A DNA stretch of 64,000 nucleotides from contig NW_024704743.1 of NCBI RefSeq assembly GCF_018977255.1, positions 18,974,001 to 19,038,000 of the forward strand, given 5' to 3'. Made by a program: the position numbers and the translations under genes. Shown here one piece after another: positions 6,773 through 63,749 of the stretch. Origin of the DNA: Callorhinchus milii. Its lineage: Eukaryota. Numbering within the stretch: the first letter of the stretch is position 1; every line of letters begins with the position of its first letter. The notes under the pieces are model-generated. The model was not told the origin of the DNA, did no database searches, and was given only the letters and a program-made list of their open reading frames with translations.

Positions 6773-6853
6773 ATGCTGGTGGGGCTGCTATTGGTCTTCA
6801 CAACGCCGAATGTTGCCATGCTCAAACCGCCTAAGGCCAAAAATGTCTCCTGG
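6773..6853 (+). CDS. CACNB2: Putative alternative first coding exon at the beta2a-like position (MLVGLLLVFTTPNVA-MLKPPKAKNVSW; second in-frame ATG at 6818)
   Basis: In-frame ATGs at 6773 and 6818 (GCCATG), phase-0 donor TGG|GTAAGT at 6853/6854. Basic peptide ending VSW versus recalled beta2a ..RRRVRVSY. Downstream of a promoter-like island. Confidence 0.55.
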
Positions 6854-31050: not shown

Positions 31051-31474
31051 AAAATCACAAGGTTAGTTCAGATGAGAAGGTCCTTCGGCTTATCTGATCT
31101 CGTCCTTCCAGAATAGCCATCAAGCTACTTCTTAAATGAGTTCCAGTCCTGGCCTCAACCACCCTTCTTGGCAACCTGTCCCAGACTTGTTAATTGCCCT
31201 TTGGATAAAGAAAAACTTCCTGCTATCTGTCTTGACATTGCCCTTTGCAACTCAAAACCTATAAAATCACAAGGTTAGTTCAGATGAGAAGGTCCTTCGG
31301 CTTATCTGATCTCGTCCTTCCAAAATAGCCATCAAGCTACTTCTTAAATGAGTTCCAGTCCTGGCCTCAACCACCCTTCTTGGCAACCTGTCCCAGACTT
31401 GTTAATTGCCCTTTGGATAAAGAAAAACTTCCTGCTATCTGTCTTGACATTGCCCTTTGCAACTCAAAACCTAT
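31051..31474. repeat. Tandem duplication, 2 x 212 bp, of a CR1-like 3' fragment
   Basis: 31051-31262 matches 31263-31474; the only difference I see is G31111 versus A31323. Confidence 0.95.
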
Positions 31475-31869
31475 ATTTTCTTGTTCTACAATCTTGGGGC
31501 ATGTGAAAACACTTTCCTCACACAACCTTCTCCCCTCCAGGATAAAATATCAATGTAAACTGTGTGTTTCACTCACAAAATACACAATCAATAGATACAC
31601 TTTATAATATGTCCTGTGAAGCACTTTGAGACATCCTGAGGCACTTTGAGACATCCCAAATTGACTGTGGGGAAACATATAACATATTTCTAGACTACCA
31701 AACGCGGTTGACAAAGTACCAGATGAAAGAATCTTTCACAAAGTATCAAGGACAAGACAGGGTCATGGTACAAGATTAGGTGAAGGGAAACCAAGAGTTT
31801 TAGGGAAACTAGGTCTAACTGTGAGGATTGTATTGAGTCCCCTCCTGTTCCTTGTTTATATTAGTGACC

Positions 31870-46489: not shown

Positions 46490-46771
46490 CTTTTTTTTTG
46501 TTTAGCCGGATATGTGACACGTGCGGAAACCCATCACCATGCTTAACAGTATCCAAACCAAACTGAGAATTCCATGCATCGCAAGAACACACGGAAATAC
46601 CAGCGATAGATTGTTGGAATGGAATGCGCACTCTCTCCTTGGAGGGATGCATCCTGCTGACCTAATCCGGAAAGTATTAGGCGCAGGTTGGCAAGAGCCA
46701 AGGGTTGGCGACCCCAGAGTGTGCGTTGGGGAACTGCGTAGGGGCGTCTAACCAGCTAAAACCGCATAGCT
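46490..46771 (-). mobile_element. SINE-like family C, longest copy
   Basis: Reverse strand begins gctatgcggttttagctggttagacgcccc (A-box-like) and ends gggtttccgcacgtgtcacatatccggctaaac(A)n. Related pieces at 25470, 44480, 60405 and 63945. Confidence 0.7.
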
Positions 46772-46799
46772 TGCCATTGATATCGCTGTCTAAAAAAAC

Positions 46800-47372
46800 A
46801 CAAACCTAAAAGCAGCTTTTTTTTCTCACGTAAAAAAGCTTGCTGGCAGCCACACAGCTACAGTGTACTGCTAAACATCAATCACGATGGGCTAGTACAG
46901 TTCTGGTTGGCTGGACTAATTGTGTTCTCAGTAGATGTTTATTAAGGAGAGGTCAAAAGCTGGGGCTGTCATTTCCCCCTGTTCAGCATCTGCCTGCTCC
47001 GAGGCTTGGAACAGGGACTAATGAAATGTTCCTCTCCTCTGACGGCAGGCTACTGAGACTGCGAGGTGGACCCACGTCACTGTGACTGGAGTATGTTCCT
47101 CCCCATCTCTCTGCCTGTTAATTTATGTTGACAGGACTCTGGTTCCTGCGCTCCATCCTAAAGCAGGAGCTGGATGAAATCAACAACTGGGGCAGATCAG
47201 CACTGCGCTTCGCTGAGAAAGATCCAGCAGCAGGCCTGATCCTGCACAGCAAATAAGGGCCTTAAATTGGAGGTGTAACAAGCCTGCAGCACATAGTTTT
47301 GTTCCCTGCTGGTTGTGGTCTGATACGTACGTCCAGTGGCTGTTCCTGCAATACACTTGGACCTGGTCTGGT
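46800..47372 (+). promoter_or_regulatory. Candidate promoter/5'UTR of the beta2b-type exon
   Basis: Unique, relatively GC-rich sequence directly upstream of ATG 47373. The start site cannot be located from sequence. Confidence 0.5.
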
Positions 47373-47423
47373 ATGCTTGATCGACGTCTAATGACTCCTG
47401 GTCCTAAGCACCTTATTCCTGAG
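47373..47423 (+). CDS. CACNB2: Alternative first coding exon of a voltage-gated calcium channel beta subunit, beta2b-type N-terminus (MLDRRLMTPGPKHLIPE)
   Basis: ATG at 47373, 17 codons, phase-0 donor GAG|GTAAGT at 47423/47424. Same length as, and 10/17 identical to, the recalled human beta2b peptide MLDRRLIAPQTKYIIPG. Lies in a repeat-poor island. Confidence 0.88.
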
Positions 47424-49394
47424 GTAAGTGTATGATGCTACAGGCTAAGCATTGAATCAGGTCCCAGTGGAAAATGTGGTTGGCTTGCTCGCTCACTCAA
47501 TTTGACACCCATTTAATGACAGACTGACAGAATTACATTGCTCTGAAATCCCCCTTGGTATCCTGTTGTTTTATGCCTCCTGATAGTGCCAGCGACAATG
47601 TGACAAGATGCAACAGCAGTTAATAGAAGCTGAGCCTTTTTTTTGTGAAGAGTGCTTTTCTACAAATGACTGTCATTTTGCAAATTTGTGTTTGATCCAT
47701 TCGTGAACTGTTGATGTTAAGTTAGTCAGGAATAACTGTCTGCCTGTCAGAAACTCACCCATAAGAAACCATTGAGTAAATCAGAACAAGGCCCCCTTTA
47801 GTTTTTGTATTCTAAATGGTACCTTAAATAGCACTCGATGAGTGGTTCTAACTTGATGCATGTTCATTACCCAGTGGGTTAAACATCCCTTTGTAAAATG
47901 CCACGAAAGCTATGGTTTAGTTGTAATTTTTCCCTCCACACAGTTACAATGGTGACTATTTCACAGCCTCCCCTGTTCTTATTGTGAAGAAGCCACAATG
48001 CAGAGCCTTTTATTGTCTTAAAGATGCATTTAAAAGGGCATCATCTCTCTTCACGTTAAAGTGGCTGGCAAACCCAGTTTTGTTTTTAAAGACACAATGG
48101 TTTAGATGGTATCAGGGTTAGACATCACTTTGAACAAGATGACACCAAGCTTCTCCCTGACCATTCTTTTCCTTCATCGGCAAATGAATGTTTAACAAAT
48201 GATTTTTTTTCTTTAAAAGCACCACCTTTACCTACTAAGAAAAATCAAAATGTATTTTCGTTCATTTTAAACCGTTACATTCAAGTCAACAGAGGGAATC
48301 GCAGTGCAGCAGATACTCTGCGGCTCTCATTCTGTGCGCTCAAAACTATTTAGCAGGAAACAAACTGCGTTTTACATCTATGGAGTTTTTTTCAAAAAAC
48401 TTCAACTTTTTGAAACAAAAAGAGTTGCCTTCTCATAGTGAGAAAGGGTATATATTTTTGGACAAATTGTTAAACACCCAAGCTGTTCATTAATAATAGC
48501 AATAATATATCAATTCCTTAAGTTCTTCAAGACTTCAATAAACAACCCCAACCCTAAAAGTTATGCTTTCTCAATCTGATTCTTGGCACTTGAAGTTAAA
48601 AGCAGGAGACTAGTAGGAAGAAATCCTTGACTGTGAATCATGCCCCATATTTCAAGCATCTGACAGGAGACAGCCTGCTTGCTTGTCTACCACCTGTTCT
48701 TCACATTCTATGGCGTTACATGGTGAACTATTAAAGGGTGTGAAAGGACTTTACAGTGATCGGGAACTTCAAATTATGTTAGTGTTGCATTTTTTTAACT
48801 TTTCTGGGCTATTTATGCCAATTTAATATTTTTTTCCCTACTCTAAGCCAAACTTTTAAAAGGGACGTGCCCTCCGTGAGGGGTGCTGCAATAAATGCAA
48901 GTTGTTGTTGTCTCATCGCCTCCATGTTAATTTAAGGTGCTATCTACACTTGATTTTGTTAGTTTAAATATTCACACGTCATTTATATCGATATGAGTGG
49001 CATTGGAATGGTTTTTATTGGCTGATGTCAGAGGCTGAGCATCATTGGCATGTTCTCTGGAGGACAAGGGGAGAGAGAGGCCTGTTTTGTCTTAAGTACA
49101 TTTTCTGTCATCTCAATGCTCTGTGATTGTTCATGTCCTGCAGCACTTCCATCTGTAACTGACTGTTGCATCATTTCACCCAAAACATTTAAACTCAAGG
49201 TCTGAACCAGTTACGAGATACTCTCCGGTCACTCAAAACCATAGGAGCAGAAGTCTTGTGAGTACTTCAGAATGAAACACGTCCACATTTTGAACAGGAA
49301 TGGAATTCAACCTCAAAACGTGCTTGATCCAAGAATTGAGAATCAGCTGTTCGCTAAATGGTGATGTTCCCTCAATGGCGAAGTTCCCCGTGAG

Positions 49395-49860
49395 GAATGA
49401 GGTATCTTTCCTCTGAGTTAGAAGGTTGTAATCGAGGTTGACACTCAAAGCATAGCTGGGGTGTGTGTTGCAGTGTTTGAGTTGCTGCCCTTTAGGTCCC
49501 ATCAACTGTTCAGGGTGGATATTTAAGATCCCTCAGCACTATTCGAGAAGAGAATGGATTCTCTCTGGCATCCTGGTCAACAATCCTCCCAAATAAAATT
49601 GGATATTCACTTTATGGCTGTTTTGGGGCATTGCTGTGCACAAATTCAGTCAATTCACTTTACGGTATGTTCTTTGAAGTGCTTTGAGACGTCTCGAAGA
49701 CGTGATAAGGCAAGGAATGTTATTATTATTTATTATAAATTGGCTACTGCAGTTGTCTACAAATACAGTCATTGCAGTTTGCAGTAAAATCCTCTGAATT
49801 GCTTTGAGACGTCTTGATGACATGATAAAATGCTGTATCAAATATGAACATTATTACTTT
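49395..49860 (+). mobile_element. SINE B with a SINE A tail inserted (~49640-49732)
   Basis: Two successive tails within one B body. Confidence 0.7.
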
Positions 49861-50052
49861 TATAATATTGAGTAATAGAGCTTCTTTTTTTTTTCTCCTG
49901 TCAACTCTATACTGTGAAAGAGGCCAGTAACTATAGGAGCGACTTTAGTGGACTTTGATAACACATTCATTTACTGATGTGTGGCACCAAAGCTGTCAAT
50001 AATTGCCTAATTCTAAATAATTCTGACACTTTCAGTGAAACTACAAGATTAT

Positions 50053-50345
50053 TATAATAATAATCCTTGCATTTCATATAGCACCTTATCATGTTGTTGA
50101 GACGTCTCAAAGTGCTCCACAGGATATACTGTAAAGTGGATTGACTGTGTATTTTATGGGTAAAACATGGTAGCCAGTTGCACACAGAAATGTCCCACAA
50201 GCAACCATGGAATGAATGACCAATTTTATTTGGGGGATTGTTGACCAGGACCAGGAGAAACTCCCTTCACTTTTTGCAAAGTGCCATGGGATGTTTGACA
50301 TCCACCTGAACAGGCAGACGGGACCTCGGTTTAACGTTTCATGCG
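50053..50345 (-). mobile_element. SINE family B (headless)
   Basis: catccacctgaacaggcagacgggacctcggtttaacgt core. Confidence 0.85.
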
Positions 50346-50609
50346 AAGGAAGGCTTGCTAATGTTACACAGTTAGTTTATCAATGGTTTATAGCCACAAT
50401 TTACTGAGAATGATTTGTCAGAACTTTGACATAAATCAGAGCATGGTGGTTGTGCCAGATTTGTGGAGTGAGGCCCTATATAAAATATGTGATGAAGTAA
50501 AATCATAATCCTTACAGGGTTGAAAAAATCAGAGTAAAGCCAGTATCTCTCTAACTGGCAATCCAGCTGGTTGAGAAAGGGCGTCCAAGGAGAGGGACAT
50601 CCCCATTTT

Positions 50610-50764
50610 CAGGTCTTCTGCTGAAGACCTTTCTTTTCGACCGCACCTTTGGTTATCTTCTTCTCCCTCCCCCTGGCTCAGCCCCGGGATCCGTTACTGT
50701 AAAGCGCTCTGAGACGCCGTCCGGCTTGGAGGGCGCTATATAAATCCACGTTGTTGTTGTTGTT
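50610..50764 (+). mobile_element. L2 3' terminus with (GTT)n
   Basis: ctgaagacctttcttttcgacc...aaagcgctctgagacg...ggcgctatataaat...gttgttgttgttgtt. Confidence 0.8.
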
Positions 50765-51679
50765 CCTCTTGCAGCAAACCTAAGGTCAAGTTTATGTCTT
50801 AATTATCATTAGGTCGCATTTCAATGTGTGTATTAAAAAGCAGCATAGGTGTTGGTTAACATATCCCACCATTTTCCCTACTCTCTGAGCTAAAGTGGTA
50901 AATCATTTTCCCGCACCCCCTCAGTACCCACTCCTAGCTCAGGTGCCCAGACAACATTATCAAGTGTTCTGAGGCCTCCTCCAAACATAAAAGGTGCTAT
51001 ATCATTTGTATTGTTCGTGTCGTTCAAACCAATGATATGAATTACAGATAATGCCCCAAAAATCACACACACACTCTTCATCCTTTACAAATAACCAGGG
51101 GATCACCAAACACATTTCAAGCACCCCTTTAAGAAATTGCTTACACATTTCAAGACTCTAGTCCCTGCTAATTTCCTAAGTTTATTCAGTTACGCTATTT
51201 CTGAGCTCCAAGTGGATGCTTTATAGTGTGATTTGGTTGCTGTAACAAATATTCCCGTTTATCGACCCTCTTCTAAAGATGCTTGTTAATAATCAAGTCT
51301 GTATGATCTTGTGCTACCATCCAGAAGGTGACAAATCTCGTCACAGGTATTACTGCTCAAAAGCTTCCCTATTGTGGAGCCATTTTGACTTGCAAGATTT
51401 TAACTAAAAGCTCTTTATTTGGATCCCCCAACAATAATACCGCTCTGCAAACTGGTTCTGTGAGCCTTGGCTTGATAGCAGCTGACTGTTACCATAGCAA
51501 TTGGAAATTATTAGATGGACCTGCTGCTTATTCCCAGGGTAAAGCACTGTTGTGCATATAAATGGTTTAATTGCAACACAATGTGTTTTAACTACATCTC
51601 CCAGCATTCTTCACTCCATTAATGGTCTGTTTCCAAAATGTGAGTCCAAAATGACAGTACATTAATAAATAATAATCCT

Positions 51680-52082
51680 AAATAATCCTTGCAATTGAAG
51701 TAACACCTTTCATCTCAAAGTTCTTCACAGGATTTGTAAGTGGAGAGTTTGTAGGCAAATTATGGCAGCTCAATTGCACACGTCAATGTTCCACAAACAG
51801 TCATGAAGCAAATGATACTTTTATTTGGGGATTTGTTGGCTAGGACACTGGGAGAACTCCCTTCTCTTTTCAAATAGTGCCAAGGGATCCTGAACATCCA
51901 CCTGGACAGGCAGACAGGACCTCAGTTTAACATCTTACCCAAAAAATGGCACTGGCAAAAATACAACACATCCCCATCCCTGCACAGAAGTGTCAGCTGA
52001 GAGTCTATTGAATTCAAATCTCAACATGCAGCTTGAACTCACAACCTTCTGACTCAGAGGGGAGAGTCTACCAACTGACACA
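51680..52082 (-). mobile_element. SINE family B, full length
   Basis: Tail, core and head (cttgaactcacaaccttctgactcagagg). Confidence 0.85.
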
Positions 52083-52109
52083 CGTAAGATAGCTAGCAGT
52101 GGATCTAAT

Positions 52110-52330
52110 AGTCGGTTTCGAAATAACGGCTTCATTCAAAGGGTGGCGAGAATGTGGAATTCATTGCTGGAAGCAAAAAGCATCAATTTGTTTAAAAGAA
52201 AACTTGATGCATGGATGAATGGTATATGAGAGGAGAATAAAAGGGATGGAGCCTCATATAAACACTGGCACGGACTTGTTGGCCCAAATGACCTATGTTT
52301 GTATTGTATCACTCTATATGTGTAACTCTA
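52110..52330 (+). mobile_element. CR1-like 3' end
   Basis: ttcattcaaagggtggcgagaatgtggaattc...cactggcacggacttgttggcccaaatg. Confidence 0.7.
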
Positions 52331-54693
52331 TGTAAGAGAGTTGCCATTGAAATTCTAAAGTAAATTACAGAATTTCTGTTTTAATCAAACATTGAGACCT
52401 GATATTCAACATCTTCTTTATCCCTGGATGGCAATTACACGCTGCTAATTCAGAACTGACCGATTATACGGAAGGTATCAGTCAGTGTGACTTAGTCGGT
52501 AGAACTCTTGCCTCTGACTCACCAGGTTGAGGATTAGAAGCAGATTGTTAAAAACAGATATTTCCAGCACAGAAGGGAGGGATTTGGCCCCTCAAATATA
52601 CAGTCACTCCATTTTACAGTAAATCCAGTGAAGCACGTTGAGACGTCCTAACTACGTGAAAGGCGCTACATCAAATATAGGAATGGTCATAAATCCGTCA
52701 GAGGACTTGGACGTCTACCTAGAACATCAAGCTGGCAGGTACATCACAAATCCTCCTGTATTGCAGAATAGCAAAGGCAGATCTGTCAAATAGCTGATGA
52801 GGAAACACTGTGGCTTGGGCTAAGAGGAGTCCATGTCTGTGAGCACACATTAATTTATGCAGGGCTTGGTGCCTACTGTGATTAGTATTCTGAGAGGTGA
52901 GCAACTGCTGTTGAATCTCTGCTCCTCCAACTGGTGAGAAGACTGCTCAGTGGGCAGGGGGGTGTTCATATTATTAATAACATAAGATGTCTGGCAGGCT
53001 AAGTTGCATATTGTGTGATTTTGTGCAGACGTGCAGCAAAGCACAAAATTGTACAGAAATTCCTATTTGTGTGCAAAGAGCATAATTGAGTTAGTGCACA
53101 AAGCACTTATAAGAAAAAAAACTGCTCAGCTAGATTTAACAAAATCCTAGACACCATGGGAGTTCAAGATTCAAAAAATCACTGATGCTAGTAGTAATCT
53201 TCTACAAATATTAATGCAACATTTTTTGCAGATTGTTTTGGAACGGATTATGTTGCGATCATAGTGCTGGGAATGAATCTATCGGTTGTGGGATATCTAG
53301 GGATTACACAGTCACTACACTTTACAGTATATCTGTAAAACACTTTTGAGACATCCACCTTACGTGAAGTGGAAAGGTTATTATTACTAGTGGTAGGATC
53401 TCTCTCGGCAATACATTTATACATGGTGATAGATTTCCAGTACATGGTGATGGATTTCCATGCATAACAATACTATAATCCTTACATTTGATGTAGCATT
53501 TTATCATGTCATCGAAATATCTCAAAGTGCTTCACAGGATATACTGTAAAGTGGTATGACTGTATTTTGCGGGTGAACCTGAAAGCCAATTTGTGCACAA
53601 CAATTTCCAACAAATAGCTGTGAAGTGCAGTGCCTGTGTATTTTGTGGGTGAAATGTTGCACATAGCAATGCCCCACAACTAGCCATGAAGTGAATGACC
53701 AATGTTATTGAGGGATCATTAGCCATGATATTCCCTTCAACCCAGGGATCTTTAATGTACACCTAACTTATACATTTAATAACAATAATAATAATGCTTC
53801 TCTTTGATGTAGTGGGATAAACTAGTCAGGGAGCACTGGATAAGAACAGCAAACATTGACAGCAGGAGTGTAACCAGTGTGATGAATGAAGCAATCTGTG
53901 AGGCATCCTTCTTCATTGTACTCACACACACAGGCAGCACAGGACAACAGAATGTAGTAACAACTTGCACTTTGTAGTGCCTTTCACATATGATAACATC
54001 TCATAGAAACAGAGTTGGGAGCCCGAGCAGGGCAAGAGATAGTAGAGTAGAAGGGGAGATAACCAAAGGGATTTTTGAAGATATTTTAAGAGAACTGAGT
54101 CTTCCCAAAGAACCCTTGACTGTATCGAGCACAGTGAGTACAGTTTTATTTTCTGTCTGATTGCCAAGCCAGTAATTTTGACATAGAATCATGGAAAGTC
54201 TACAGCACAGAAAGAAGCGATTTGGCCAGTTCATACGTATATTGGTGCTAATTGCTCCCAACCCTCCACATTGTGCTCTCCGAATTCCAAAGAAACTCCA
54301 AAATAATCATCAATCTCCATTATTTAACCTTGGCCTCTTTCCTTACACACACAGAATTTCTCTTCCTCCAACCTCCCCTCAGCTCCTGTAGCTCATAAAT
54401 CATGTCCTATGGAGTATTTATTCAACTTAGGCAGACATTGAAGTAAAATGGCATTAGGTGATGTAGCCTCTGAAATGCCATTGTGTGTGGATCACTCTTA
54501 ATGTCACAGGCCTGTAGTTCTCGATGACACCATTGCAGATCTGTCCACTTGTGTGAATGTCTGGTTTCTTCCAGTGAGAACGTGAAAGGGACTTCAGAGC
54601 CTACAGTCATTTAAGCTGAAATAATGACATGTTTGAATATCGTAAAAATTTCCTTCTGAGATTGTATTGATAAAAATAATCCTTTTATACGAT

Positions 54694-55010
54694 ATAATAA
54701 TAATAATCCTTGTATTTGATATAGCGCTTTTCACGTCGGGAGGACGTCCCAAAGCGCTTCACAGAAGACACTGTAAAGTGAATTGACTGTATATTTGTGG
54801 GCGAACGCGGCAGCCAATTGCGCACAGCAATGTCCCACAAACAGTCGTAGATTGAAAATGACCAATTTATTATTGTTTTTGTTTTTTTGGAGGGATTATT
54901 ATTAGGCGTGTGGAGTAAGGAAACTTGCCCAAGTTTTCGCCCTGCCTGGAATTGAACTCAGGTCTCTCGCTTGCAAAGCGAGTGCTCTAACCACTGAGCT
55001 ACAGGACTCC
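54694..55010 (-). mobile_element. SINE family A, young short subfamily
   Basis: Near-exact reverse complement of 33950-34274 with CpGs retained. Confidence 0.95.
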
Positions 55011-55719
55011 ATAGGGCTTATGGTTACCTCCCCTTCCCATTCCCCTTTGCTCAGCACCACTGTGAAGCACTTTGAGACGTTATCCTACATAAGGATACTA
55101 TATAAATGCAAGTTGTTGATACAGCACCTTTCGCATCAGGAGGACGTCTCAAAGCACGTCACGGGATTTCATTATAAAACATAGTGACTGTGTATACGAT
55201 ATAAGGTGGATATGATATAAGGTAACCCTCAGTGAAGAGGAGCATTTACAAAACATTCATTCTAGTGAGTCATCCTGAATTGTCATTTTAATGAGAGTCC
55301 GAGGGGTGGATTAATGTTTAATTTATTTATGATTATTGAAAATTCTGCAAAGCATTATGTGAGACTTCAGCAGCACATTATTGCTAAGCAACTCAAATTC
55401 CATCCTGAATTTGCTGATACCATTTGTCTCTGCTACTTCGTTGGTTTTGAAAATAATGATAATCCTTGCACTTGATTGAGTGTCAATGCTCCAAGACGCT
55501 ATCCTGTGTGAGGGGCGCTGTATAAATGCAAGTTGTTGCCTTATCTATAAAATACGCAGTCACTCTAATGAATCCTGTGAAGTGATTTGAGGTATTCCAA
55601 CAACGTGAAAAGGTGCAATATCAAATGCAAGGATTATTATCATAATAATACAATAATATGTAACTCATTGGGAAAAGGAATCTAATTAAATTCTGTTCAA
55701 AGATTGTGTATGCTTACTT

Positions 55720-56020
55720 TATCTGTTGATGTGACAACAGAAAAAAAAGGCAGCATATATGGATACATTTAAGAGGAAGCTATATACACATGAGGGAGAA
55801 GAGAATAGAAGTGTATGGGAGCGAACAAGGAGTGGGTGGAAACTCAGGGGGAATATAAACACCGGCGCGGACTGGTTGGGCCAAGTGACCCGTTTCTGTG
55901 CTGTAAAATCTATGTAAATATAGAACCAGAAATAATCATACCTTTCAATTGAATTTTTTGCCAAATAGCTATCAAATTCCTTTTTCGATTTGCTGACACA
56001 ATCTGCCTCCACCGCCTCAT
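55720..56020. mobile_element. CR1 3' ends, tail-to-tail (+ 55720-55920; - 55920-56020)
   Basis: ataaacaccggcgcggactggttgggccaagtgacccgtttctgtgctgtaaa; reverse MEADCVSKSKKEFDSYL-like end. Confidence 0.65.
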
Positions 56021-56487
56021 TTGATATCGCGGCATGTCATCAAAATGTCTCTGAGACTTCACAGGATTTTATTATAAAGTATTGTGACTATTTGTAGGCA
56101 AAACCAAATCACACATAACATTGTACCATAAACAGTCATAGAGTGAATGTTCAATTTAATCAGAGGGATTGATTACTGACCAGGACACTGAAATAAATTC
56201 CCTTCTCTCGCATATAGATGAATCAAAGTTAGAAATTATGGGCAGAAATTGCCTAAGCAATGGATCTTGATATCCTTGTCCTGCAATTCAGTTTGAATTT
56301 GAGCTCCGAGACTTACCGGCCACTCCCTTCATGGCTTTTATGGGACATTGTTTACGTAAATCGCTCCATGTTCACCAACATATATGCAGTCACTACACTT
56401 TCCAATAATTAATATAAAGCACTTTGAGATGCTTTGAAATTGTGGTAAGGCTCTATATCAAATGCAAGGATTATTGTAATAATTATA

Positions 56488-56792
56488 TAATAATCCTTAC
56501 ATTTGAAATAGCCCCTTTCACCTTGGGTGGTTGTCTCAAAGTGCTTCACGGGATGCGCTGTAAAGTGGGCAAACACAACAGCCAATTTACATACAGCAAT
56601 GTCCCAAAAAAGTGATTAACTGATTTTATTGGGAATTGTTGGCCAGGAAACTCCCCCTTTCGAAATGTGCCTTCAGATCTTAAACATCCACCTGAACAAG
56701 CAGATGAGACCTCGATTTCATGTATCGTCCAAAGGACAGCACCTCCAACAATGGAGCACCCCCAGCACTGCATTTTAATGTCAGCCTAGACT
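56488..56792 (-). mobile_element. SINE family B
   Basis: ttaaacatccacctgaacaagcagatgagacctcg...aaggacagcacctcc. Confidence 0.8.
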
Positions 56793-57991
56793 ACCTGCTT
56801 ACTGCCACTTGTAGTGCTGGTAACATTAATGTAAATATATGGAGGTGAAATATGATCAAACATCAATGATACATTGTATTTTGCCACCAATTTCTAAAGA
56901 CACAGATGTCAAACTCCCTCTGTGTATTGTTCCTGCAAACTTTAAGCTGACTCTTCAGTACAGTACTAAGACAAGAGGTACCATCCTTTGGACAGGGCAT
57001 TAAACTGAAGTCCACTCTGCAATGATCAGGCAAGTGTTAAAGATCCCATGATATTATTCAAAACGAGAAAGAAGTTTCTCCAAAAATCCTCCACATAATT
57101 TCACTTCATACCTGTTTGTTTCCTCTTCCTTACATCCAGGAACCTCACTATCCGCAAATTTGCTGCCACTTTTACTTACTTTTACTTACTCAGTCACTAT
57201 ATTTGACAGCAATTATCTGTGAAGGATTTTGAGACTTTTGAATGACATGGATGCTACGTCAAATTCAAGCAATATTATTAAACCTTCGAGCTCACCGACG
57301 ATAGCGCAGTACTGCAATGTCCAGGTGATGAAATGTACCATTCAGGTCAAGGATACAATGTGGTTGGGTGGGAGTGGGATGGGCAGGTTGAATTACTATC
57401 TCTGTTTCTTTGAAAAAAAAGATCACAAGTGTCTGCCTTAAAGAAAATAATAATAATAGTAATCCTTGCGTTTGATATAGTGCTTCTAGGTGTCTCAAAG
57501 CGCTTCACAGAATATGCTGCAAAGTGAATTGACTGTATATTTTGTGGGCGAAAAGGGAAAGAATCTGGAGGGTATGTCAGTTCAGATTGCTCTAACACAT
57601 CTGCCAGCAGATAATAATAACAATACGTTGGGACATGTCTGGGACCAGGTTACCTGGGCGTCTCAGTTTGGGGGTTGCAAGAAAGTGCGCATCTGGGCAA
57701 TTTCCAATTTTGTCTCAGGCCTTGTCCCAACCTCAGTTTGCCAAAATTGTGGTCTTCTTTGGAGATCACGATTTCTATAAAGCTGCAGTCTTGAACCCGC
57801 AGTAATTTGAGAAGCGTACAGCTGCACAAGGCCACCTCTGTACCAGCTGTTAGTCCCTGTTTGCTTCACTGAGGCACACCTGATTACAAGAAGCATTTTT
57901 TTCAGCAGAACCTTTCAAACGCTCACTTATTTAAAGTGCGAGTATCGTGAGAATGAGCTTTGCAGAGGTTGTCTTTGCTACGCTATAAAAA

Positions 57992-58170
57992 TAGTAATCC
58001 TAGCATTTGCTATAGCGGCTTATCACGTCTCAAAGCGCTTCACAGAATATACTGTAAAGTGAATTGACTGTATATTTTGTGGGCGAAATTAAGGCAGCCA
58101 ATTGCACACAGAAGTGTCCCACAGTCGTGGAATGAGTGACCAAATTATTTTTACTTATTTGGAAGGATTT
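57992..58170 (-). mobile_element. SINE family A 3' half (further partial copies at 57447-57555 and 58423-58682)
   Basis: aagcgcttcacagaatatactgtaaagtgaattgactgtatattttgtgggcgaa. Confidence 0.85.
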
Positions 58171-58225
58171 ATTTCTCTCACTCTTTCTCCAGTTTGCAAC
58201 TCAAGCCCAATATAGCCCCAAACTT

Positions 58226-58239
58226 GTTACCATGGAAAC
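58226..58239. promoter_or_regulatory. RFX X-box motif GTTACCATGGAAAC
   Basis: Identical 14-mer to 5238-5251, in unique sequence between two SINEs. Confidence 0.45.
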
Positions 58240-58709
58240 TGAGCAGCAAAGACAGGAACAGCCTTACAGCACCCCGTTCAGGATATTTTTAAAAGAACAA
58301 CAGAGGAATTTATTTGATTGAACTTGATTTTTTTCTATTTTATCAAACAATTTCTCATTGATTTTCGCTCAGGTCTCCCGTTCCTGCAGTGTCTTTCCTC
58401 CTCTAGTTACAGTCACTAATAATATAATAATAATCCTTGCATTTGATATAGCACCTTGAGACGTCTCAAAGTGCTTCACAGAATATACTGTAAAGTGAAT
58501 TAACTGTATATTTTTGTGGGAGGAACGTGGCAGCCAATTGCCACAGTAGTGTCCCACAAACAGTCCTGGATTGAGTGAACAAATGTATTTTTAAATTAAT
58601 TAATTTTTTTGAAGGGATTATTACCACCTGAAAAACAATCTGTCAATCAATTAACAACCAGGTTCCTACTTACTGCTTGGTAAAATAGTTTTGGATTGTG
58701 ATATGGTGC

Positions 58710-59237
58710 CACATCACTTTGTCAAAGTATTTCAAAGCATTTGACAGATTTATTATAAAGTGTAGTGACTGTGTACTTGTAGGCAAATGTGGCAGCCAAT
58801 TTGTGCATGGCATGCCGCACAAACAACCACAGAATGAACGACTAATTTATGTAGAATATTGTTGGCCTGGACACTTCTTATAGGGAGGAACTCCTTTCTC
58901 TTATTGATATTGCTATGGGATCTTTAATATCCACCAGAACAGTCTGATGGGATCTCAGTATAATCTGTAGGAGGCATCTCTGACAATGAATCACTCCCAC
59001 AGAACTGCACAGTGTCAGTCTAGACTGTAGCTCCGAATCCTGAAGGGATGTTTGAACTCACAACAACAACAAGATTTCATTTATAGAGCGCCTTTCACAT
59101 CGGGAGGACATCCCAAGGCGCTGGACAGTTGGGTCGGGACCCGAGCAGGGGGGGAATGGTCAGAGTGAGGGGAGGGAAGGGAGGGAGCGAGGAGGGGGTA
59201 AAGAGTCGAGAGGGGAGCTGAAGGCACGGTCGAAGAG

Positions 59238-59268
<31 letters not shown>

Positions 59269-59286
59269 AACTGAGCCAGACTGACA
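58710..59286 (-). mobile_element. SINE B whose head is split by an L2 3' fragment (59061-59237)
   Basis: tttgaactcacaac|L2|aaccttctgactcagaggcaagagtgctacc. Confidence 0.8.
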
Positions 59287-60682
59287 CGTAGTAGCCAAGA
59301 AAGTGAATATCCTAGATTTGACCATGGGGAAGGAGGGGTGGAAGAGGTCAGCAAGGTCTAGCTCGATTTCCCATTATATATATCTGATTAATTTTTAGAT
59401 ATCGGTATATTTAGAGTTCTGCTGCCAGCTCACTTGTGAGATAGACATATCCTTACTAGTTCCCTGCACTTATGCACTTTTACTCTTGAATTGTGAGAGT
59501 ATGTGACACCCCTTAATTCCTATAAATGACTGGCTGGTTATAGTTTGAGAGTGACAGTTTTGAGGTGTGACGTATCACGTCATTGAAAATTACCGTCAAT
59601 TTTCATTTATGGGTTCACTCCTTTCTCCTTTCCTCCCCAACTTTTACACTACACTTCACAATAAATCCTGTGGAGCGCCTTTGGAAATCCTCCTGACGTG
59701 AAAATCACTGTACTAAATGTAAAGATTATCATTATTATTTATTATTATCTTTAAATCCTTCCTTAATACTCTGACCACATCTATGGTTACCTGCCCCTTC
59801 CACCCCCACCCCTTCACCTACACTCACCCAGCTCGGTATTGAACAGCGCTCTGAGACGCTTTCCTGTGTGAAAGCCGTTATATAAAAACGAGTTATTATT
59901 GTTGCTGTTGTCTAGGTCCAGTCTTCTGTTAGTGGTTGGAGGCGAGAAGGAAACGTGATTTAAATGAGTATGTTGGGAGGGTCATTGACTTTGGTAATTG
60001 TTTAAATGTTTAAATACTTTTTTCCCCAAAATGTTTCAGTTCTTTCCTAAAACTGATTTATTTCTGTTGGAGAATTGTGTTTGTTAAATGAAAATTGAAT
60101 TGTGTGCTATAAATACTGTCAGGATGACTTCACGAGTCTGTGCCAAAGTTAATAATAATCGTTGCATTTGACATAGCGCCTTTCACATAGGGAAGACATC
60201 TTGAAATGCTTCACAGAATTTACTGTGAACTGACTGTATTTATTAGGTAAACACAGCAACAAATTTGCACACAATAATGTTCCTGTTTGGATTGGATGCT
60301 GCATTTGCCTACAAATACAGCAACAACACTTTGCAATAAATCTGGTGAAGTGCTTTGATGACACAATAAGATGTTATATCAAATGCAAGTATTATTTTAT
60401 ATTATTAAACACGGTGATGGGTTTCCGCAAGTGTTGAACGCCTGGCTCACCGAAAAGAGTAAAACATTGAATTAGTTCCTGATAGAAGTTCCTGAAGTTA
60501 GGCCATGGAAAAGATATTGAACCCTGATTCTGCTTGGATCATCCTGGACATGGCTTGTCCGTCATTTGGTTTTTCTCTAACGCCTGGTGGAGTGTGTTTA
60601 AAACAAGTAGGAGAGAGGGCTTAACAGAGAGCTTCACAATGAGAGAGGGAAGCTACTGTCTTAGTGTAGGGTCTGGGTAAAA

Positions 60683-60955
60683 TAATAATAATAATCTTTG
60701 CAATTTGTAGAGCCCATTATCACCTTTTTGAGACTTCTTGAAGCACTTTGCAGGATATATTGTAAAGTGTGACTGTGTATTTTGTGGTTTGCGCACAGCA
60801 GAGTTCCATAAACAGCCATGGAGTGAATGACCAATTTTATTTGGGGTATTGTTGGCCAGGACACTGGGAGAAACTCACTTCTCTTTTCGAATAATGCCAT
60901 TGGGATCTTTAACATCCACCTGAACAGGGCCTCGGTTTAATATCACATCTGACAT
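60683..60955 (-). mobile_element. SINE family B (headless)
   Basis: aaacagccatggagtgaatgaccaattttatttggg...ggatctttaacatccacctgaacagg. Confidence 0.85.
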
Positions 60956-60999
60956 TAAAAGCAGCCAGGTAGCAACTAGAATAAATGCAATTCTGCGGT

Positions 61000-61576
61000 G
61001 ATACTTTTGCGTTATTCTGATGAACGGAAGCCTTTTGCTGGTTGTGTCCAGCAATGGAGCTCTGTTTGTTTTTTAACACAAGGCATTTCATCCCCATTCC
61101 CCTCACTAGGGGAAGTCAGCAGCATCACTAAATCCACAGCTGGGCACTGGAAGCTTTGCTCATTCTCCTCTCCTGACAGCCAGTCATCTGCCTGAATCAG
61201 AGCATGTGATGGTGAACGTTTAACTAAGACTTGAATGAAGTTGTCTCTCCTCCTCCCCCCACCTCTCCACAGAAAGCTGCTTCGAGCTATGCACTTACTC
61301 ACTTCCACCACAGCAGCCATTCCCAAATTCTGGAATTTTCAGACAGCCGCTGCTTGCCAAGCATTAAGCTTCAGCTGTTGACTAATAGGGAAGTTATTTT
61401 GCATCTGAACGCACTGGAGCAGGCTTTTAACCGTGGGAAATAGGCAGCACAGCACTTTTAATAGAGCGGAGCGAAGATTTCAGGGAAAAGAAGAGACGCT
61501 TTGGTTTGAATCAGCCTGTTGCTTCCCACTTGATGGAAGTGACTGCTAGTCGGGACGACATTCTTGGTGCGTGGAC
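61000..61576 (+). promoter_or_regulatory. Candidate promoter/5'UTR of the beta3/beta4a-like exon
   Basis: Repeat-free island with a C-rich box (~61247-61270), E-box CAGCTG (~61372) and several CpGs just before ATG 61577. Confidence 0.45.
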
Positions 61577-61609
61577 ATGTACCTCTACGGCCGGGAGGAG
61601 ACTGAGGTG
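61577..61609 (+). CDS. CACNB2: Putative alternative first coding exon, beta3/beta4a-like N-terminus (MYLYGREETEV)
   Basis: gacATG at 61577 with an upstream in-frame TAG, 11 codons, phase-0 donor GTG|GTAAGT. Aligns to the end of the recalled beta4a peptide MYDNLYLHGIEDSEA (Y, L, G, E, E identical). Repeat-free context. Confidence 0.7.
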
Positions 61610-63749
61610 GTAAGTAAGATAAAGTGAAGGAGACAACTTGTGTAAGAAGGGCCGCAGTTGTGTGGAGAGATAGTGGAATGTCTTCTTCCCCTTAACAATG
61701 GATAACGGAGAGAGATGGCTGAAGCATTGCTAGCTTTGCTTTACTACAAACTTAAAGCACCGTCTTAGTAACCTCTTAGTTGCCAGTCCACTGGTCACTA
61801 CATGTTAATCAATCAGGTAGTCGGTACGAATTAATTTATACTTCTAGTGCTCATTGAAATGAGTGCAATGTGAGCAGAATTATTTAAACAATGACATTCG
61901 TCACTTGACATAATTTAGTTACAGTTTGGAAAGATGCCTTCCCCTGGACAGTATTGCAATTAATATTCAAAGCCATTATTTAAAGTGCTGTAATAATTCA
62001 ACAATATTTGATAAGTTATTCGAATATCATCATTTAATCAGGGACAAGTTTAAATATCTTAAAGACTTGAAGCCTAGATGTAAATTGAGATATCAATGAC
62101 AAAGATTTCCATTTACAGCACCTTTTACGTTGGGAGGATATCTGAAAGGGCTTCACATGCCTGAAGGGGAACGGGGGGTTAGTAGCTGAAGAGGTGTTGG
62201 GGCGGAGGGGTGGAGGAGCGTGAATAGAAGACTAATCAATGAAGATTTTAAAGCTGAGGAGGGAGGAGGTGAGACAGAGTAATTCTGGGATGGAGTTCCA
62301 GAGAGTATGGGAAGAACTTTTTCAATTGGTTTGCTTGTTTGTGTTATCAAAGCAAAGGGGGCTTGTGTTGTGTTCACCTTTCAATGGTACACCATTAATT
62401 TACAGCTTGAGTCCAGCCCCTTTTGTATTGGAACTCAAGGCTGAGATTGGTGACATTTTTGCCACCACAAAGTGCTATTTCATAGGGCACTGAGTTAGGG
62501 CCGTTATCTATGACACAATACTGAAATTCCTTGGTTTTAAACAACAATGGTGGTGGGTACAGGCTTCAGGATAAAGTACTGTGTCAAAATTGTGTGTGTG
62601 TGTGGGGTGGGGGGTAGGGTGGCGGTGGGAGGGTGGTGGTTACACCTACAACCAGTCAATAATTATTGAGGTAAAAAAGGTAACCTTTCGTAAAAGATTT
62701 TTCTGACAGGCAATCGGTCACAACAGCACTGATCCTGAAATTGAGGGTAGAGGCAGAGATAGAGATATGCCTGGGGAGATAGTGGAGAGGAAGGAATGGT
62801 CGACAGTGTTGAAGGCGGCAGAGAACTCGAGGAGGATAAGGCGGCAAAGGAAACTGGGGTTGCCGATCAAGAGAACATTGTATACAACAACAAATTACAC
62901 TGATATAGAACCTTTGATGTAGGAGGATGTCTCAAAGTACTTTACAAGGGTGTCTGAGATGGGAAACGGGGAGGAGGAATTAGATTGATAGAGTGTATAG
63001 AGTATTGGTCAGACTTCTTTTGAGGTATTGTGTAGTGTTTTGGGTGCCTAACCTTAGGAAAATTATACTAACTTTCAAAATTCAAATACTCAACCCCAGT
63101 ATTGTTATAGGACATTGCTGCTGCAGATCTATTGGCCGTGTTTGTGTAACAAACTCCACTTCATTTCTAATTGATTATGTTTTCTGAAGCACTTTGAGGT
63201 GTCTATTTTGACATACAGGAGCTATATCAATACAAGTTACTATTATTATTACACTGGAAGGCGTCCAGTGATGATTCACTAGATTAATTCCAGGGCGGAA
63301 GGTGCTGAGCTAATAACCTCCCTACCCTTATCCACTCTTGATCTGTATTTACTTCCTATCTAACAACCTACCCTTTTAAACCACACCTATGGCCACCTCT
63401 CCTCCCTTGCTGTGCGTCTGACCCTGTCTTTGTGAAACACTCTAAGAAGCAGTATATATATGATGATGAGAGGTTTTGTAGACTGGGGTTGTATTCCTTA
63501 CGGCAGAGGAGGTTAAGGAAGGATTTGATTGAGTTATGAAATTAAAAAAAGGATTGACAGGTTAGATCAGTGGCATTATGCCACAAATCAAGAAATATCC
63601 ACGGAAAACTGAAAACACACAACTGATCGAACACGGACTTATCTAGACTTGTGCGATTGTTCGAGGGTTGCTTCTTGATGGCCCCGGGGGCCACAGTTTA
63701 GCCTGACTGGAATAGATATTGGAACCACTCTAGCCTTTGGTAGAAGGAA

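Follow-up and report, generated by a model that had tools for sequence, protein, structure and literature searches.

A putative acidic alternative first exon of CACNB2 in Callorhinchus milii and its apparent counterparts in the other CACNB genes

A stretch of 64,000 nucleotides of the Callorhinchus milii genome (contig NW_024704743.1, positions 18,974,001 to 19,038,000; hereafter the window, numbered from its first letter) contains a short open frame resembling the N-terminus of beta3 and beta4a at what seems to be the locus of another paralogue, CACNB2. This raises the question of whether the frame is a genuine start exon of CACNB2 and whether an exon of this type was present before the vertebrate CACNB duplications. 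The analysis described below makes it very probable, as a whole, that the window carries an acidic CACNB2 start exon inherited from before the duplications, which likely has a promoter of its own and is likely joined in phase 0 to the GSADS exon.

The frame is opened by the ATG at 61577-61579 on the forward strand, encodes the 11 residues MYLYGREETEV up to position 61609 and is followed directly by the phase-0 donor GTAAGT at 61610-61615, where contigs of probable RNA runs break. The letters thus agree with the first-pass annotation, and they give a short ATG-bearing exon with a phase-0 donor, the layout of a CACNB2 alternative first exon. An in-frame stop is located 10 codons 5' of the ATG, and G occupies the -3 position. 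The repeat-free setting about 14 kb 3' of a beta2b-type exon on the same strand, which had also been claimed, was confirmed: according to the self-similarity repeat map of the window, the exon lies in an island at 60953-62104, one of 10 stretches of at least 1 kb free of self-similar repeats, while repeats occupy 20,566 of the 64,000 bases. The CpG value near the exon (0.49-0.54 against a window median of 0.37) is barely raised and uninformative. Elsewhere, at 31051-31475, the window contains a tandem pair of 212 bases each, 99% identical, which reflects either recent duplication or an artefact of the assembly.

The exon layout is in itself common, as the window yields 18 rows of ATG...GTRAGT phase-0 frames when both strands and nested ATGs are counted. 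The peptide is much less so. Of the 71,291 11-codon stretches of the window without a stop, and of the 3,855 among them that end before GT, MYLYGREETEV ranked first, both against a profile of beta4a first exons alone and against one of beta1 and beta4a exons together. The scores of the peptide and the runner-up were 31.0 and 26.7 for beta4a alone and 33.2 and 21.2 for the combined profile; the beta4a-only score is the fairer one, since the beta1 share of the other came from a search seeded with the orthologous exon. The likeness to the beta3/beta4a type in the register of the splice junction is therefore above chance, and the description of the frame as a first exon of this type holds.

The identity of the locus was approached through its other start exons. 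The beta2b-type alternative first exon MLDRRLMTPGPKHLIPE is found at 47373-47423 on the forward strand, 14.2 kb upstream of the acidic exon, with a GTAAGT donor at 47424; it is identical at 10 of 17 positions to four mammalian beta2b records and at 7 of 17 to two others, and is covered by contigs of the probable RNA runs X1 and X2. A third, putative alternative first exon (6773-6853, forward strand) encodes a 12-residue basic form, MLKPPKAKNVSW, from the ATG at 6818, and the ATG at 6773 adds 15 residues in frame. The resulting 27-residue form is identical at 17 of 27 positions to toad and at 19 of 27 to dunnart CACNB2 isoforms. Each of the three start exons has its own repeat-free island, and together these account for three of the 10 islands of at least 1 kb. 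No GSADS, SH3 or GK motif was found within the 64-kb window. Among the 467 proteins retrieved, NVSW-type exons (4/4) and beta2b-type exons (8/8) were always joined to a beta2-type exon 3, in a set skewed to beta2 by the queries and with a rough sorter that assigned one or more cyprinid beta2 proteins to beta1.

The acidic exon thus sits among beta2-specific first exons, the beta2b-type and the 6773-6853 exon, and the sequence evidence identifies the locus as CACNB2, because these two exons occur only on beta2 proteins in the set retrieved. This supports the first-pass assignment, together with its claim that one gene retains acidic and beta2b-type exons side by side (61577-61609 and 47373-47423, same strand). 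The opposite possibility is that the window belongs to CACNB1 or another paralogue, in which the acidic exon would be ordinary and the beta2b exon the oddity. The peptide alone does not fix the paralogue, since it is also identical at 7 of 11 positions to shark CACNB1 exons, and the window has no core exon that could be placed in a tree. Against this, the identity to ray CACNB2 is 9/11, including G-R-E-E, and the two other start exons were seen only on beta2 proteins; we therefore consider a CACNB1 locus extremely improbable.

Several observations concern the basic start exons. The 15-residue extension from the ATG at 6773 is hydrophobic (mean hydropathy 1.83), and the 27-residue N-terminus looks, from its sequence, like a membrane anchor or a signal-type start on a cytosolic subunit. 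Teleost records carry the 12-residue form. The exon may correspond to exon 2 of zebrafish beta2.2, which the text of Ebert et al. 2008 (PMC2365960) likewise takes to be restricted to fish. One marsupial CACNB2 model (P0428) has yet another short basic start peptide, of eight residues, on GSADS.

The use of the acidic exon was assessed with assembled contigs of runs X1-X4, all from one study and only guessed to be RNA, over the region 46694-62104 (15.4 kb). Thirteen runs were listed, of which eight contain the stretch; none is recorded as RNA, and X9-X13, from two other studies, have almost none of its words. Among the 32 pieces listed, out of more than 112,000, contigs of X1, X3 and X4 span the leader and the acidic exon, match the genome to 61610 and then continue with 28, 221 and 323 unlike letters, respectively, while a contig of X2 ends exactly at 61610. 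The matching letter at 61610 is the donor G, which is also the first letter of a next exon beginning in G. Between the bin before the donor and the next bin past it, depth changes from 25.5 to 1.46 in X1, from 29 to 0.25 in X2, from 9 to 1.47 in X3 and from 1.18 to 0.11 in X4. One X3 contig, of depth 2.7, passes through the donor into the intron. At the beta2b-type exon, contigs of X1 and X2 depart from the genome after 47424, and one X4 contig is unspliced there. In X1, the acidic-exon contig and the beta2b-exon contig each end in 28 loose letters, as would be expected with 31-letter words if two exons ending in the same base were both spliced to a single downstream exon. The first-pass annotation had proposed a search for junctions at this donor, and contigs break at 61609/61610 in all four runs examined, which points to its use in transcripts. 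This evidence consists of break positions, as repeats crowd out the acceptor letters, and for this species we infer the join to GSADS.

The contigs also outline the likely 5' untranslated part of the exon (61218-61576, forward strand). Their 5' ends lie at 61218, 61268, 61321 and 61484, and all are continuous up to the donor; the transcription start is not fixed by these ends. An out-of-frame upstream ATG with a weak -3 context opens a frame at 61533-61609 that overlaps the start at 61577. The leader ATGs at 61235 and 61289 are in frame with 61577, but a stop closes both before it.

These upstream ATGs bear on the possibility that C. milii retains the exon only as a decaying relic or as a non-coding start, with transcription and splicing but little translation, for example because an upstream ATG captures ribosomes. 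The ATG at 61533 overlapping the start and two more ATGs further 5' would fit such a relic, as would the fact that a protein record of this isoform from C. milii was not among the matches retrieved. The ATG is, however, intact with G at -3, the frame is open, the donor is of consensus type and used in contigs, and the peptide is identical at 9 of 11 positions to that of rays. A relic accordingly receives very little credence from us, and we continue to regard the exon as a coding start.

Orthologous exons were sought in the CACNB2 of other vertebrates with two queries. The first, a fish CACNB exon, came from a metagenome scan; five of the best 120 of its 3,559 matches start with an acidic exon of 11 residues on GSADS, and cluster look-ups added CACNB2 isoforms of platypus (MYLYGTEDTDG, UniRef A0A6I8PH12), toad, possum (MYLYGHEDSEA, XP_036615108.1) and koala (XP_020822558.1). 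The second query consisted of residues 1-40 of the platypus protein, and the best 120 of its 2,745 matches added CACNB2 isoforms of sawfish, skate, paddlefish, teleosts, frogs, newt, skink, rattlesnake and turtle. The peptide of sawfish (CACNB2 X3, XP_051871813.1) and skate (XP_078272568.1), MYLYGREEPEE, is identical to that of the window at 9 of 11 positions, a closeness in keeping with a cartilaginous fish. The identity is 7/11 for platypus, marsupials, paddlefish and mudminnow and 5/11 for the carp/zebrafish type, the teleost beta2 copies going down to 3-5/11, while six other beta2 first exons reach only 0-1/11. Like the window, the annotated isoforms of non-placental vertebrates thus have an orthologous exon (7-9/11 identical) joined to GSADS; unlike a characterised protein, they are automatic database models without functional study. 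PDB searches with bare 20-residue window peptides gave chance matches only, these queries being very short, and a 42-residue query including the beta2b exon, too short to be weighed, gave no match at E<=10.

The metagenome scan also yielded four loci (L028, L070, L054 and L065) in which the CACNB frame is open for 416-612 codons on long contigs (149 kb for L028, 55 kb for L070); these are invertebrate-type CACNB genes with few or no introns.

An isoform of this kind has already been cloned. Ebert et al. 2008 (PMC2365960) obtained zebrafish beta2.1_tv1, and the deposited starts are MYLSTSEESDL for zebrafish (ABY19301.1) and MYHSCSEESDL for Tetraodon tv3 (DAA64789.1). As tv1 and tv2 start with the acidic peptide and tv5/6/7 with the beta2e type, tv1 would be the variant using the exon that these authors call exon 1. 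The zebrafish isoform (beta2.1, cacnb2a) resembles that of the window in belonging to the same gene and in having an acidic first exon of 11 residues joined to GSADS; it differs in sequence, with 5/11 identity (scored on the identical carp peptide). The shared length, acidic character and junction register, with intermediates linking the two, identify the window exon at the sequence level as an orthologue of zebrafish beta2.1 exon 1. Ebert et al. did not find exon 1 in mammals, Xenopus or chick and considered it perhaps teleost-specific, and the passages of text covered draw no link to beta3 or beta4a (PMC2365960).

The claims that the isoform is possibly undescribed and peculiar to this lineage were consequently abandoned, as it is cloned in zebrafish, deposited for Tetraodon and annotated widely, in rays, amphibians, reptiles, platypus and marsupials; existing annotation was what the first-pass annotation itself had named as removing the novelty. 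The exon is real and conserved, the isoform is known, and the chimaera-type copy is new.

The distribution among mammals and birds was examined in CACNB2 records with the junction. The acidic exon was present in two of six marsupial records and in none of 25 placental and none of three bird records, after four placental and five bird records were dropped for a missing junction, the bird CACNB2 records being mostly partial. The earlier statement that mammalian CACNB2 has no such peptide therefore applies at most to placentals and fails for platypus and marsupials. The text of Ebert et al. (PMC2365960) gives five human beta2 N-termini, a to e. The exon was probably lost from placental CACNB2, although 0/25 is a weak test because the representative search did not return the marsupial copies, which surfaced only as cluster members.

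Related acidic exons were also detected outside CACNB2. The best 120 of the 2,745 matches include CACNB1 isoforms of sharks (MEMYLYGLDDSEV), sturgeon, eel, arowana, caecilian and turtles, as well as beta4a of many species. The 50%-representative search and the look-ups of teleost beta3 clusters returned no canonical beta3 first exon; the beta3 start was supplied by PDB 7mix_C, and the acidic-exon profile extends into it. The N-termini of beta4a and beta3 (PDB 2d46_A and 7mix_C) share with the window the junction-anchored pattern Y-x-x-G-x-E-[DE]-[ST]-E, the window peptide being identical to beta4a at 5/11 and, by eye, to beta3 at 4/11 positions. They belong to different genes and differ in having 15 residues instead of 11: the window has no 15-residue M-Y-D start, and the codon four positions upstream is TGG. 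Compared by eye with the last 11 residues of each, the possum peptide agrees with beta4a at eight positions and with beta3 at seven. According to these comparisons, which rest on 11-15 residues, the acidic exon type is present in all four CACNB paralogues.

Phylogenetic analysis of the SH3-GK core placed the carriers in separate clades, with support of 98/96 for beta2, 100/99 for beta4 and 100/100 for beta3, the beta1 rows being split off with 100/99; another core tree agrees (beta2 93/87), and the ray orthologues fall with beta2 in both. Three teleost beta3 cores were placed beside beta4, and the beta3 and beta4 clade is supported by 97/98. One row with a long branch (P0411) distorts the drawn root and was kept in. 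Some records are misleadingly named: many of the UniRef records P0159-P0213 called 'beta-3' have a beta4a sequence, P0190 among them grouping with beta4 in the tree, and a Salminus record named 'beta-4-like' groups with beta2. Seven CACNB1 records of sharks, ray-finned fishes, caecilian and turtles (P0155, P0157, P0217, P0223, P0229, P0237 and P0242) have an acidic short first exon, in contrast to the description of beta1 as using exons 1 and 2.

These comparisons give good support to the view that the exon was already present in one CACNB gene before the duplications and passed from it to all four paralogues, and the original proposal of a pre-duplication exon repertoire was strengthened by the CACNB1 carriers, which it had not known. 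Alternatively, the exons of beta1/beta2 and of beta3/beta4 could be separate in origin or later moved, their likeness being due to convergence on an acidic Tyr/Gly/Glu peptide or to gene conversion. Such an origin would agree with the 11-15 comparable residues, with the mostly 11-residue form of beta1/beta2 and the 15-residue form of beta3/beta4, with the beta3 and beta4 clade and with the 3-5/11 identity of teleost beta2 copies to the window. Position, phase and junction-anchored register are nevertheless identical in all four genes, the marsupial beta2 exon is 8/11 identical to beta4a, and the starts of cyprinid beta2 and sawshark beta1 lie four codons further 5', which puts them in register with the 15-residue beta3/beta4a forms, so that we regard separate origins as very unlikely and retain common inheritance. 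No cyclostome or invertebrate chordate copy was found among the matches retrieved. The last two in-frame codons before the window ATG (within 61565-61576, forward strand) encode V-D, as in the 15-residue cyprinid beta2 and sawshark beta1 forms; they are possibly, judging by this likeness, a relic of a longer ancestral start.

The isoform starting at 61577-61609 would have a promoter of its own, located in the repeat-free island, and would be joined in phase 0 to the common GSADS exon past the end of the window; the product would be a Cav-beta2 whose N-terminus resembles those of beta3 and beta4a. Own promoters have been reported for mouse Cacnb1 exon 2B/1b (PMC12963491; bioRxiv 10.1101/2025.06.10.658789) and proposed for fish beta2 first exons (PMC2365960). 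The anchor of beta2a is a palmitoyl group and that of beta2e a basic patch, and both isoforms slow inactivation (PMC4672716). MYLYGREETEV has no cysteine, one basic and three acidic residues and a net charge of -2, and so differs from both in having neither the cysteine pair nor the basic patch. As the two slowing isoforms depend on palmitoylation or on a basic patch, this one is predicted to reside in the cytosol and to leave inactivation unslowed. Its main role is likely to be that of one more separately regulated promoter, and it may also have a partner-binding patch like that of beta3 and beta4a.

The candidate partner is synaptotagmin I, reported to bind beta3 and beta4a and not beta4b (review PMC4672716 citing Vendel 2006). 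Since beta3 and beta4a share the acidic exon type, the acidic forms of beta2 and beta1 might, speculatively and by analogy, bind it too. That one ancestral acidic exon, surviving in all four paralogues, is the determinant of this binding seems to us rather doubtful. Zebrafish beta2.1_tv1 is reported in adult heart and not in brain, with tv6 in brain (PMC2365960), which is a poor fit with a purely presynaptic or neuronal role. If the idea were true, some beta1 and beta2 isoforms of non-placental vertebrates would have partners like those of beta3 and beta4a, and the paralogue-specific presynaptic coupling of rodents and humans would be a late result of the placental loss of the beta2 exon.

With regard to earlier work, the text of Dawson et al. 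2014 (PMC3972191) states that alternative use of exons 1a/1b or of a short exon 2 predates the vertebrate duplications. It differs from our reading in grouping the 'B' N-termini of beta2a, 2b, 2e, beta3 and beta4a by position only and in treating beta1 as having exons 1a/1b only, and one sequence-homologous exon in all four paralogues is not reported in the sections covered. In the literature covered, which was mostly open-access with few subscription papers, no report of four-paralogue exon homology or of placental loss was found. A four-paralogue origin with probable placental loss is thus a sound reading that we did not find in print, and the gain is one of evolutionary interpretation, the molecule itself being already in databases.

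The acidic exon is distributed in beta2 from chimaeras to marsupials and in beta1 from sharks to turtles. An exon described as possibly teleost-specific would then be at least as old as the jawed vertebrates and common to the other three beta genes, and the textbook division, in which beta3 and beta4a are acidic, beta2 has forms a to e and beta1 is long, would fit placental mammals and not vertebrates as a whole. The marsupial, reptile and shark isoforms are natural chimaeras that combine a beta4a-like N-terminus with the body of beta1 or beta2, and they would allow testing of whether the acidic peptide is enough by itself to determine partner binding, localisation or gating.
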